DNA from: an uncultured Deinococcales bacterium
Lineage (GTDB): Bacteria; Deinococcota; Deinococci; Deinococcales; JAAFIG01
Length of the DNA: 29,803 bases
Reading direction: 5' to 3'
Assembly: GCA_964244895.1 (NCBI GenBank)
Contig: CAXTKV010000018.1
Location: forward strand, 9,715 to 39,517
Position numbers and translations under genes: made by a program. Below, piece after piece: positions 14,028 through 29,803 of this stretch. How positions within the stretch are numbered: position 1 is the stretch's first letter; each line of letters begins with the position of its first letter. The notes under the pieces were generated by a model that searched no databases, was not told the DNA's origin, and was given only the letters and a program-made list of their open reading frames with translations.

Positions 14028-14075
14028 GAACACCGTCCAGCACGCATTGCTTGAATCGTGCGCTGGACGGTGTTC
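14028..14075. repeat. REP-like element copy
   Basis: GAACACCGTCCAGCACGC...GTGCGCTGGACGGTGTTC. Confidence 0.85.
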
Positions 14076-16248: not shown

Positions 16249-17619
16249 GTGCAAAACTCGCGCGACTGCCTGGAGACTGTTAATCTCGAAGGGCACAATC
16301 GCGGGAACCTTGACAGTTTTATGGTTGATATTTTTTCTCTTCGGGGGAATCTGTTTTGTGCGGCGCATCCCAGCCGCCTGGAAAACCTCAGGAAAGCGTA
16401 TCTGGCACAGGCGCAACAGCGTTTTTGTCTTTACGCGCTGGCGCTGACGGCCCTGTCCGTCTTTGTCAGCATGGGCTTCCAGACGCAGGCTGCGGCCATG
16501 CTCGGGACAACCGAGATTGCCATCCACAGAAATTGGGCGCTAATCCCCCAGATGGTGTTCGCCGTCTGGGTCGTTCAGAAACTACCCATTCGCAACCTCC
16601 CCAGGTGGCTCGCCATTTCGGGAGCGTTGTTGCTCGTGACCCTCTGGGCGAACCCCGATGGGACGAACACCCAGTCGTTTGTCCTGAGCACGATCGCAGG
16701 TAGCTTTCAGACCAGTCTGAGCTGGAAGCTCTGCGCCCGAACCTTCCCAAATTCCATGCAGGGACAAGGGGCACAAAACCTGTGCTGCCTGTCGGCGACC
16801 GCCATCGCGGGATCACTCGCGCTGAACCTTCACGGCTTCAGTCTGTACGTCGCTGTCAGCGCCATCGGTGTCGTGTTCGCCTGCTGCCTCGTGCAACCGT
16901 TCGAGTGCTTTCTCGAGATCCAGAACCCACAACGACAGGCTTGCCTGAAAAAGTGGGTTTCTTTGAAGAACCTTCTGAGGTTTCAAAAAGAGATGGATTA
17001 CCCCAAGGTTCGCGTCCTCTGGGCATCGGGCATCTCAATGCTTTATCCCGTCTCCATGGCGGTCAAAGGGCAAGCGGATGGGTACACGCTCGAGGTGGCG
17101 CGTCACCTCGGTGACGGCTATGCGAGCATCGAGTCGGGCGCTTCGGTTCTGGCGTGCCTCGCGTTCACCGTGCAACCTGCCACCTATACGGCAATCGCAA
17201 AGCGTGTCGGTGGCGAAGGAAGGCTCATGGCGGGTGCTGGTGTGATTGCCGCATTCACATACATCTTGAGCGGACTGGTGATCGCGAAGGGTTTTGCAGG
17301 TGGTTTGGGATGGGTCGCTCTGGCTTACGCGTTGCGAGCCATTGCGGGTGTGTGCTTCGAGATTTTCGAGCGCGGTTCGGAAGTCTTAAGCGATGAACTC
17401 GCCCACGGACGACGCAACGAGTTCGCGGCAGGAATGCTGGTCATGGTTCTGTACAGACCAGCGCAGTACGTCGCGAGCATCCCGATGTTGCTTCACTTCG
17501 ATCCGAGCGGCTGTTTCGTGGTCAGTGGGTTTTTCCTGCTCATCGCCACGATATTTTTAATCATGAAAGGCGAGCTCATCGGGCGAACCTTTCTCAATTA
17601 TGCCGGACCAAAGTTATAA
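16249..17619 (+). CDS. Multi-pass membrane protein, possibly a highly diverged MFS; start uncertain (alternative ATG at 16321)
   Basis: About 11-12 hydrophobic segments in two blocks split by a hydrophilic loop; atypical codon usage; many Cys. Confidence 0.5.
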   Translation: MQNSRDCLETVNLEGHNRGNLDSFMVDIFSLRGNLFCAAHPSRLENLRKAYLAQAQQRFCLYALALTALSVFVSMGFQTQAAAMLGTTEIAIHRNWALIPQMVFAVWVVQKLPIRNLPRWLAISGALLLVTLWANPDGTNTQSFVLSTIAGSFQTSLSWKLCARTFPNSMQGQGAQNLCCLSATAIAGSLALNLHGFSLYVAVSAIGVVFACCLVQPFECFLEIQNPQRQACLKKWVSLKNLLRFQKEMDYPKVRVLWASGISMLYPVSMAVKGQADGYTLEVARHLGDGYASIESGASVLACLAFTVQPATYTAIAKRVGGEGRLMAGAGVIAAFTYILSGLVIAKGFAGGLGWVALAYALRAIAGVCFEIFERGSEVLSDELAHGRRNEFAAGMLVMVLYRPAQYVASIPMLLHFDPSGCFVVSGFFLLIATIFLIMKGELIGRTFLNYAGPKL

Positions 17620-19294: not shown

Positions 19295-19340
19295 AACACC
19301 GTCCAGCACGCGAGTCTGAATATGCGTGCTGGACGGTGTT
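19295..19340. repeat. REP-like element copy (perfect 17-bp arms)
   Basis: AACACCGTCCAGCACGC-12 nt-GCGTGCTGGACGGTGTT. Confidence 0.9.
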
Positions 19341-26624: not shown

Positions 26625-26708
26625 TACCCCGTTCTGGTTCCCTGATGGCTTGATCCCCAGGGAACCAGAACGGGGTATTCCCCGGTTGTTCCCCAGCCGG
26701 GGAATACC
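26625..26708 (+). promoter_or_regulatory. Two overlapping inverted repeats in the leader of the peptide array
   Basis: Perfect 20-bp stem 26625-26644/26658-26677 and 12-bp stem 26674-26685/26697-26708. Confidence 0.6.
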
Positions 26709-26787
26709 TTGTGTTTCAGAACCAGTACCGAACGGACACGCCGCAGAACCTCGAGCACCTTCGAGGCACGACATGAAGGAGGTGATC

Positions 26788-26829
26788 ATGAAGAAGATTC
26801 GTAAAGGTCGGAGTGCTTGGGCGGGCTAA
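26788..26829 (+). CDS. 13-aa peptide 1: MKKIRKGRSAWAG
   Basis: AAGGAGGTGA SD, ATG...TAA; one of 7 paralogues. Confidence 0.85.
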   Translation: MKKIRKGRSAWAG

Positions 26830-26861
26830 ACTCCTCTAAACAGCATAGAGAAGAGGGAATC

Positions 26862-26903
26862 ATGAAGAAAATCCGCAAAGGCCGGAGTGTTTGGTTAGGG
26901 TAA
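26862..26903 (+). CDS. 13-aa peptide 2: MKKIRKGRSVWLG
   Basis: AAGAGGG SD-like site, ATG...TAA; paralogue. Confidence 0.82.
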   Translation: MKKIRKGRSVWLG

Positions 26904-26916
26904 ATGAATTTTCGCG

Positions 26917-26962
26917 TAGTTTATCTCAACTGGTTTATTTATGAATCAGTTGAGATAAACTA
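26917..26962 (+). promoter_or_regulatory. 16-bp perfect inverted repeat inside the peptide array
   Basis: TAGTTTATCTCAACTG...CAGTTGAGATAAACTA, extendable inward with G-U pairs. Confidence 0.6.
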
Positions 26963-26985
26963 ACAGATTCTAAAAAGGAGCAATC

Positions 26986-27132
26986 GTGGTAAAAATCCTG
27001 AAAGTCATCGTTGTTCTCGGGTTCGCATTTTCCGCATCAAACTTTGTATCTGCGAGTCCTGCTGGTAATCCTAAGGCCGCTGTTGTTTCAAGCAATCCTA
27101 TCTATCAAGGTGCAGGTTCAGCCCGAAGGTAG
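26986..27132 (+). CDS. 48-aa secreted propeptide MVKILKVIVVLGFAFSASNFVSA|SPAGNPKAAVVSSNPIYQGAGSARR
   Basis: AAAGGAG SD 5 nt before the GTG; basic N-region, hydrophobic core and V-S-A signal peptidase I-like site. Confidence 0.7.
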   Translation: MVKILKVIVVLGFAFSASNFVSASPAGNPKAAVVSSNPIYQGAGSARR

Positions 27133-27223
27133 AAAATCAATCTCTATGCTCGAGAAAGTTTAAAAACTGCTGCACAGGTGGATTTTTGAATTCAACCTCG
27201 TTCAAAGATGAAAGGAGGAAACG

Positions 27224-27265
27224 ATGAAGAAGGTTCGAAAAGGCCGAGCTGTTTGGGCAGGTTAA
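27224..27265 (+). CDS. 13-aa peptide 3: MKKVRKGRAVWAG
   Basis: AAAGGAGG SD, ATG...TAA; paralogue. Confidence 0.85.
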   Translation: MKKVRKGRAVWAG

Positions 27266-27297
27266 AAGACATTATTTGATGTAGAAAGAAGGTGATT

Positions 27298-27339
27298 ATG
27301 AAGAAAATCCGTAAAGGTCAAAGGGCTTGGACTTCCTAA
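27298..27339 (+). CDS. 13-aa peptide 4: MKKIRKGQRAWTS
   Basis: AGAAGGTGA SD, ATG...TAA; paralogue. Confidence 0.83.
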   Translation: MKKIRKGQRAWTS

Positions 27340-27374
27340 ACAAATCTCGAGCAACTAGAGAGAGAAGGTGAAAC

Positions 27375-27416
27375 ATGAAGAAAATCCGTAAGGGACGCTC
27401 TGCTTGGGCAACGTAA
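27375..27416 (+). CDS. 13-aa peptide 5: MKKIRKGRSAWAT
   Basis: AGAAGGTGA SD, ATG...TAA; paralogue. Confidence 0.83.
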   Translation: MKKIRKGRSAWAT

Positions 27417-27450
27417 TCCAACCCTGATGTGAAATCGAGACAAGGACATT

Positions 27451-27492
27451 TTGAAGAAGATTCAGCGCGGAAAAGCTGCTTGGTCGGGCTAA
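27451..27492 (+). CDS. 13-aa peptide 6: MKKIQRGKAAWSG (TTG start)
   Basis: AAGGA SD, TTG...TAA; the most divergent paralogue. Confidence 0.72.
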   Translation: MKKIQRGKAAWSG

Positions 27493-27525
27493 ATATATTT
27501 CAGATGTAGCAAAAAGGAGGTGATC

Positions 27526-27567
27526 ATGAAGAAAATCCGTAAAGGACGCAGAGCCTGGTCAACGTAA
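27526..27567 (+). CDS. 13-aa peptide 7: MKKIRKGRRAWST
   Basis: AAGGAGGTGA SD, ATG...TAA; paralogue. Confidence 0.85.
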   Translation: MKKIRKGRRAWST

Positions 27568-27623: not shown

Positions 27624-27658
27624 CTCCTGAGGCTGGGCGCAAACGCACACCTCAGGAG
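27624..27658 (+). promoter_or_regulatory. Hairpin between the peptide array and the MFS gene
   Basis: CTCCTGAGG...CCTCAGGAG outer stem with an inner GCG-CAAA-CGC; only a weak U-tract. Confidence 0.5.
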
Positions 27659-29324: not shown

Positions 29325-29803
29325 TTAGATCATCAGTTCTCGTTTCAACCACCCAACCAAATCGCGTACGCCTTCACGGTCAAAACGCAACGGTGTTCCG
29401 GCGGCGGCGTACAGTTCGGGCAGACTGCGCGTGTACCCCAGCCCGAGCGCGGTTCGGTACGCTTCGAGCGTTTGGGTGGGTCGCTCGAGCGCGTTTTTCC
29501 AGAGTTGGACCGCGCCCAGTCCGGCCAGAATGTACTCGAACATGTAAAACGGGGCTTCAAAATGGTGCCCGATGGTCAACCAGCCTCCGGCCCTGATCGG
29601 CTCGAGGTCCGTCCAGTCCAGGCCAGGCGCGAAACGGTCTGAAAGTTCAAGCCATTTCTGGTGCAGTGCGTCGGTGGTGGGCGGAATCGTCTGGGTGTAC
29701 ACCCAGTGCTGGAAGGCATCGCTGGGCGCCAGTCTGGGCAGGTCCACCCCCAGTTGCTCGAGGGCGTCTTGGCGGGCGCGTCTGGCATCGATGCTCGAGT
29801 AAA
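29325..29803 (-). CDS. M3 family oligoendopeptidase (PepF/M3B-like), C-terminal part; gene begins beyond the window
   Basis: Frame open to the window edge; DAFQHWVY, W...HHFEAPFY.FEY.LA.LGA.QLW, Y..AL.LG.TRSLPELY.AAG; the HExxH motif would lie outside the window. Confidence 0.8.
   Translation of the reverse strand, partial: YSSIDARRARQDALEQLGVDLPRLAPSDAFQHWVYTQTIPPTTDALHQKWLELSDRFAPGLDWTDLEPIRAGGWLTIGHHFEAPFYMFEYILAGLGAVQLWKNALERPTQTLEAYRTALGLGYTRSLPELYAAAGTPLRFDREGVRDLVGWLKRELMI

Follow-up and report, generated by a model that had tools for sequence, protein, structure and literature searches.

In an uncultured Deinococcales bacterium we found a tandem array of seven genes for peptides of only 13 residues, situated between a large regulator and an MFS transporter (Table 1). 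Judged by their codons, these are conserved micro-peptide genes under purifying selection, and they constitute a real, conserved and apparently undescribed family in a coherent regulated cassette. The window (the whole stretch of DNA analysed, 29,803 nucleotides) comes from a 5.1-Mb assembly that is 91% complete, hereafter G000. Our tentative reading, to which we assign a probability of about 0.45, is that the 13-mers would be unmodified exported signals, leaving the cell through the MFS transporter; the regulator's TPR domain would sense them and so close a positive loop.

Table 1. Features of the cassette and its surroundings, with positions in the window.
Feature	Position	Strand	Remarks
Regulator, 999 aa	23574..26573	+	N-terminal MalT-like AAA/STAND ATPase, TPR solenoid (TPR region, residues 310-759), C-terminal wHTH + BTAD
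Perfect 20-bp inverted repeat	26625..26677		directly upstream of operator; not conserved in G001
Predicted operator-promoter	26678..26710	+	33 bp; TTCCC direct repeats, 11-bp period; 11 nt; -10-like TACCTT (26705-26710)
13-aa peptide 1, MKKIRKGRSAWAG	26788..26829	+	strong SD
13-aa peptide 2, MKKIRKGRSVWLG	26862..26903	+	
22-bp hairpin	26917..26962		z -5.9; within insert missing from X1 strain
48-aa ORF	26986..27132	+	GTG start, SD; signal-peptide-like N-terminus
13-aa peptide 3, MKKVRKGRAVWAG	27224..27265	+	
13-aa peptide 4, MKKIRKGQRAWTS	27298..27339	+	
13-aa peptide 5, MKKIRKGRSAWAT	27375..27416	+	
13-aa peptide 6, MKKIQRGKAAWSG	27451..27492	+	TTG start, weak SD, most divergent copy
13-aa peptide 7, MKKIRKGRRAWST	27526..27567	+	strong SD
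Hairpin between peptides and MFS	27624..27658	+	modest, z -1.6
MFS transporter, 429 aa	27679..28968	+	DHA3/EntS/Mef-like; 62% identical to G001 orthologue
M3 oligoendopeptidase, 3' part	29325..29803	-	convergent; cut by contig end

The preliminary description had reported seven 42-nt ORFs, each with its own SD and a TAA stop. All seven are present and end in TAA, although copy 6 starts with TTG and its SD, at -4.9 kcal/mol, is weaker than any other (-6.9 to -17.8 kcal/mol in the remaining copies, with near-perfect SDs on copies 1 and 7). The array as such is likewise real, but between copies 2 and 3 it is broken by a 22-bp hairpin and by a 48-aa ORF that had passed unreported; elsewhere its repeat unit is 74–77 nt. 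The first 13-mer starts 215 nt past the stop codon of the regulator. None of 100 shuffled windows gave any match to the 13-mer ORF pattern, and this single locus holds the only ORFs of this kind in the G000 assembly. As originally described, M1, K2, K3, G7 and W11 are invariant in all seven peptides, each of which carries four to six Lys/Arg and neither acidic residues nor Cys. The peptides have a charge of +4 to +6, a GRAVY of -0.5 to -1.5 and an expected unmodified mass of 1.40–1.62 kDa, and all contain a Lys/Arg-X-Lys/Arg motif. They contain no hydrophobic h-region and, as judged from sequence, no Sec signal.

The synonymous-biased change proposed for the copies was borne out, with pS of 0.65 and pN of 0.24 over codons 2–13 of the seven copies. 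The N-terminal half is conserved (pN 0.10 for codons 2–7) and the C-terminal half variable (pN 0.38 for codons 8–13). Coding identity among copies is 71%, as compared with around 30% in the flanks; both this comparison and the pS and pN values derive from 21 non-independent copy pairs. Third codon positions hold 51% of the differences (permutation p 0.005). Because pS exceeds pN, the flanks have diverged and the differences are biased to third positions, selection acts on the peptide.

A homologous array, anticipated in the preliminary description, exists at an orthologous locus of a second genus, in genome G001; a DNA search of 61 relatives and a pattern search of 363 genomes from the order yielded no other array. 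The G001 assembly is 74% complete, and its array contig, which ends inside the MFS gene, contains in this order the regulator, three 13-mers (MKKILKGKSAWSG once and MKKIRKGASAWAG twice), a 60-aa ORF and, after a hairpin, the MFS. The regulators of both genomes are 55% identical and the transporters 62%, and one G001 13-mer shares 12 of its 13 residues with peptide 1; together, the two genomes contain nine distinct 13-mers. The 60-aa ORF (L028:2756-2938), 3' of the three 13-mers, ends in S-T-W-A-S, with Trp third from last; it is kept in one 90%-level relative (P0018), and we found no other homologue.

A contig from sequencing run X1, around 93% identical to G000 over the regulator, keeps the order regulator, array, MFS and peptidase; it skips the first hairpin and the 48-aa ORF, and 197 nt separate copy 2 from the last copy, from which we infer that the X1 strain would have about five 13-mer copies. 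Copy number thus varies, as the X1 contig reads as about five copies, G000 has seven and G001 three. The 48-aa ORF had no match in Pfam, NCBIfam or Atlas and no homologue was found; as G001 lacks it and the X1 contig skips it, we consider it accessory. Its SD and first codons (26975-27004) share 70% identity with the corresponding stretch of the 13-mers. The ORF may have arisen from a 13-mer copy, or the 13-mers from a signal peptide minus its hydrophobic core. Broader scans retrieved no array beyond G000, G001 and the X1 contig. Regulators 94, 83, 58, 55 and 52% identical are present in protein collections, and regulators P0002, P0003 and P0005 form one clade with those of G000 and G001 in a quick tree (SH-aLRT 100).

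In Pfam comparisons the regulator matched BTAD above the cut-off, Trans_reg_C weakly, and TPRs; no Rgg family match was found in Pfam or NCBIfam. The best fold matches of the TPR model include NprR, MalT domain III and Rap-peptide complexes; with APC/C subunits and MalT domain III scoring equally well, these matches indicate a TPR solenoid only. The ligand of MalT domain III is a sugar. The regulator has the wHTH and BTAD of SARP-type activators, and the direct repeats with an 11-bp period upstream of the -10 constitute a predicted binding site; SARP operators are described as direct repeats just upstream of the -10 (PMC10972967, PMC11301090). The consensus TTCCC-N6-TTCCC-N11-TANNNT, 5' of the first peptide, is common to G000 and G001, both with TACCTT as the -10-like element, and the only convincing site in G000 is that at the peptide array, whose promoter is predicted to be activated by the regulator.

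The regulator family occurs in 77 of the 363 genomes of the order. The motif followed the regulator stop codon at 11 of 30 family loci and at none of 568 control windows; it was missing at the other 19 family regulators, and five of the motif loci correspond to one genus. Since the motif had been defined on these regulator loci themselves, it was re-tested across the order, where it matched 37 times, in 31 of the 363 genomes, versus nine times for the reversed pattern. Twenty of the 37 matches were at most 1 kb from a regulator match, a count that used 27 regulator rows, and outside the defining loci the figure was 10 of 27. At eight of the nine other motif-bearing regulator loci the first gene is, by eye, a signal-peptide-like ORF of 55–95 aa, the ninth being at a contig end. 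Further order-wide matches are also followed by signal-peptide-like small ORFs, and some precede longer exported proteins or unrelated genes. These sister-cassette peptides are proline-rich and non-cationic, a W-P-P-I-x-x-P tail recurs in eight that could be aligned, and the sister cassettes inspected lack an MFS gene. As regulator, motif and position match, the 13-mers fill the slot of the small exported peptide of the sister cassettes, without a Sec signal and with an MFS transporter.

Related loci provided other observations. The W-P-P-I-x-x-P family comprises signal-peptide-bearing ORFs of 50–94 aa beside regulators (L063, L109-L112, L115, L117, L152); it corresponds to no Pfam family, and two of the eight peptides show a weak PhrC_PhrF match (E 0.0019). 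At L114, L119, L132 and L135, away from the listed regulators, the motif is 6–9 nt from the start codon of an exported-looking protein, which suggests that these could be leaderless targets of related regulators. Additionally, a regulator of the same family as that of the array in genome G073 (contig C56; L192:996-11086, with its start also in L073, G125) precedes a RiPP-like cluster containing three tandem acidic precursor-like ORFs of 51–53 aa, an ABC pair, an M16C/PreP peptidase, a DUF6895 protein, an uncharacterised 456-aa protein and a second ABC-type pair.

The reading that we favour would work as follows. The wHTH-BTAD tail would bind the repeats with an 11-bp period and activate transcription in a SARP-like manner, and the many copies with strong SDs would provide the peptide supply. 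The hairpin between the peptides and the MFS, a predicted mRNA stabiliser or leaky terminator with a 16-bp counterpart at the equivalent position in G001 (z -4.3), would keep peptide mRNA above MFS mRNA. The transporter, presumably co-transcribed with the array, would export the 13-mers and so stand in for the Sec route of the sister-cassette peptides. The 13-mer, or its C-terminal G-x-x-A-W-x-x, would re-enter through an oligopeptide-type ABC importer (G000 has 22 matches to the family-5 binding proteins of such importers), and the TPR solenoid would bind the returned peptide, upon which the regulator would activate the array's own promoter. More gene copies would mean a higher dose, and the C-terminal variants a broader specificity. 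This signal loop is consistent with the layout common to two genera, in which the regulator is followed by the repeat promoter, the peptides, a hairpin and the MFS, and with the family-wide link between this regulator type, the promoter motif and a small peptide gene. Precedents are the leaderless signals of Firmicutes (PMC10518010) and those Rap systems in which several propeptide genes occur (PMC9765709). Conversely, with a single operator in G000, the loop would have no obvious output other than the peptides, the transporter and the accessory ORF; the strongest objection is that no second regulator target was found, which fits the peptides being themselves the product. Moreover, the TPR region (net charge of -4 and -5) is no more acidic than in paralogues (-1 to -15), despite the strongly cationic peptides.

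The main rival is that the 13-mers are themselves the output. They would then be unmodified cationic effectors with an antimicrobial action or an affinity for polyanions, for example LPS or nucleic acid; many strong-SD copies would supply them in bulk, the MFS transporter would export them and might also protect the producer, and the regulator would sense something else. We consider this rather unlikely, although several features of the locus speak for it: the operon is the only regulator target found, three to seven copies with strong SDs precede a hairpin, and the peptides combine their charge with Trp. In addition, a family regulator flanks a product-type multi-precursor cluster in G073, which also counts against a signal loop, and rows of similar ORFs are likewise seen in multi-peptide leaderless bacteriocins (PMC6131525). 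The latter, however, are described there as having 26–34 residues and positive GRAVY, as opposed to 13 residues and negative GRAVY, and the helical hydrophobic moment was not above that of shuffles in eight of the nine distinct peptides of G000 and G001. The 13-mers are thus short, hydrophilic and mostly not amphipathic, which counts against simple membrane killing. Besides, the locus contains neither a small membrane gene of the immunity type nor an ABC exporter, and the same slot in sister cassettes is occupied by proline-rich, non-cationic peptides.

It is improbable that the 13-mers act inside the cell, tuning some other target or, as feedback inhibitor or co-activator, the regulator; the cargo of the MFS would then be a small-molecule inducer or a toxin, and the pump the real output. 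Such a role would agree with their lack of a signal sequence, with the occurrence of close MFS relatives (51–56% identical) beside other regulators and without peptide genes, and with the fact that small molecules and protein inhibitors act on MalT-type sensors. Nevertheless, the signal-peptide-bearing peptides in the equivalent slot of sister cassettes point to an extracellular phase, and seven diverging copies would be unusual for a one-to-one clamp.

The preliminary description also divided each peptide into a basic leader and a variable Trp core, as in a RiPP or pheromone family, with unmodified peptides as the alternative; the last two options fit the context, but the RiPP option is weak, with no modifying enzyme linked to the array. 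Very short RiPP precursors whose enzyme, for instance a ComX-like Trp prenyltransferase, is encoded elsewhere or has been lost are quite improbable. The conserved N-terminal and variable C-terminal halves and the invariant Trp third from the C-terminus would suit such precursors; the ComX pheromone has its Trp near the third-last position. The 60-aa ORF of G001 shares the S-T-W-A-S ending, a C-terminal pattern, noticed after the fact, that none of the 4547 long frames in G000 has. On the other side, no enzyme was found in the G000 cassette, upstream of the neighbouring peptidase or under the operator. Our search covered six enzyme families in G000 (91% complete) and G001 (74%), the control of the LanB/PEARL search staying silent: G000 had no match to PqqD/RRE or YcaO and no ComQ-like gene, there being none beside the array either, whereas its three polyprenyl-synthase and ten radical-SAM matches read by eye as housekeeping and its four P450s are all unlinked to the array. 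Given that G000 shows neither a linked nor a co-regulated enzyme, the RiPP reading is less likely than that of unmodified peptides.

The M3 peptidase is treated here only as a neighbour of the cassette. Its 5' part likely lies on contig C252, where the neighbours, read by eye, are an RNA methyltransferase and a permease, so that it brings no modifying enzymes. G000 has two M3 (TIGR02289-like) oligoendopeptidases, this one (C18/C252) and another at C44:8519-10264, which are 40–45% identical. Elsewhere in the window there is a 456-aa hydrophobic ORF (16249-17619) without Pfam match, and a REP-like palindrome with around 1000 seed matches genome-wide has 13 in the window (e.g. 774-808, 14029-14063, 19295-19329, 23092 and 29080), none of them inside the regulator-peptide-MFS cassette.

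Lastly, it is highly improbable that the 13-mers are cis-acting leader peptides on which ribosome stalling opens the hairpin and induces a Mef-like pump: Lys/Arg-X-Lys/Arg is the kind of motif where macrolides arrest (PMC8298421, PMC12583479) and the MFS resembles Mef(A)/(C), weakly and far below the cut-off, but the last stop codon is 56 nt 5' of the hairpin, the last ORF pairs with the hairpin arms at -8.5 and -11.6 kcal/mol, weaker than the hairpin itself (-18.9), that region folds no better than shuffles, a 60-codon ORF intervenes in G001, and seven separately initiated copies with a conserved Trp would stay unexplained. Attenuator leader peptides are defined by an ORF overlapping a switchable structure through which the gene that follows is controlled, an arrangement that we did not find here.

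Comparisons with known peptide systems indicated both likenesses and differences. The LCPs of Firmicutes (RopB-SIP) are described as mostly 8–10 aa, highly hydrophobic and leaderless, with one case upstream of a transporter and with the RopB-clan receptor divergent in the cases described (PMC10518010). The 13-mers resemble them in being ultra-small ORFs with their own RBS, without signal or processing site, beside a TPR-type activator. They differ in their length, strong cationic charge, three to seven gene copies, MFS and occurrence in Deinococcota, and in a 999-aa STAND/BTAD regulator that runs in the same direction as the peptides and is not RopB-clan (Rgg-like); their negative GRAVY, set against the hydrophobic LCP signals, is a further point against the signal loop. 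RRNPP systems are delimited by a propeptide of 10–100 aa, adjacency, a Sec signal or SHP/PrgQ-like propeptide, and a receptor of 250–500 aa with TPRs (PMC10075063), and some Rap systems are reported to have several propeptide genes (PMC9765709). Our cassette has the small peptide, the adjacency and the TPRs, and lacks the Sec signal and a receptor of that size. As in the accounts of NprR-NprX, PlcR-PapR and Rap-Phr available to us, the peptide gene is directly 3' of a TPR regulator, and the TPR model resembles NprR and Rap; unlike them, the receptor is four times the minimal size and has ATPase and C-terminal SARP domains, and the peptides are Sec-free 13-mers outside Firmicutes.

With the large SARP/STAND activators, as far as described for AfsR-afsS and MalT, the regulator shares the wHTH-BTAD, ATPase and TPR modules, the repeats with an 11-bp period and a small-ORF target, although its domain order is reversed, with the ATPase first and the SARP module last, and the target is a multi-copy array plus an MFS. 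The multi-peptide leaderless bacteriocins aureocin A70, garvicin KS and cereucins, hydrophobic and made of three to four peptides of 26–34 aa in the source consulted (PMC6131525), are also tandem, similar, leaderless and cationic; our peptides are shorter, hydrophilic and up to seven in number. From ComX the cassette differs in having no adjoining ComQ-like gene, no membrane kinase and gene products of 13 aa. Membership in RRNPP, LCP, ComX and multi-peptide leaderless bacteriocins thus failed on defining features and, in keeping with the first impression that the family was not a recognised one, the 13-mers match no known peptide family by the defining features of those compared. We found no published account of such a cassette in a search made without the peptide letters (supplements could list such ORFs), and it is not described in the available text of the Deinococcus papers PMC4007540 and PMC6300522 or of the microprotein-array preprint PMC13640731.

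In all, the cassette probably works like peptide quorum sensing, outside any known family. It may represent a new cytoplasmic signalling class of Deinococcota, in which a receptor with STAND ATPase, TPR and SARP tail would read Sec-free polycationic 13-mers from an expanding and contracting array with dedicated MFS export, as a Sec-free branch of a wider, unpublished cassette family. If true, intracellular peptide signalling would reach outside Firmicutes, through a receptor that is built differently, and an MFS pump would stand in for Sec. Whatever their function, the 13-mer genes are, by the codon evidence presented here, among the shortest protein-coding genes conserved across genera; they are invisible to gene callers, and the promoter motif can guide the search for further small genes that lie hidden in this order.
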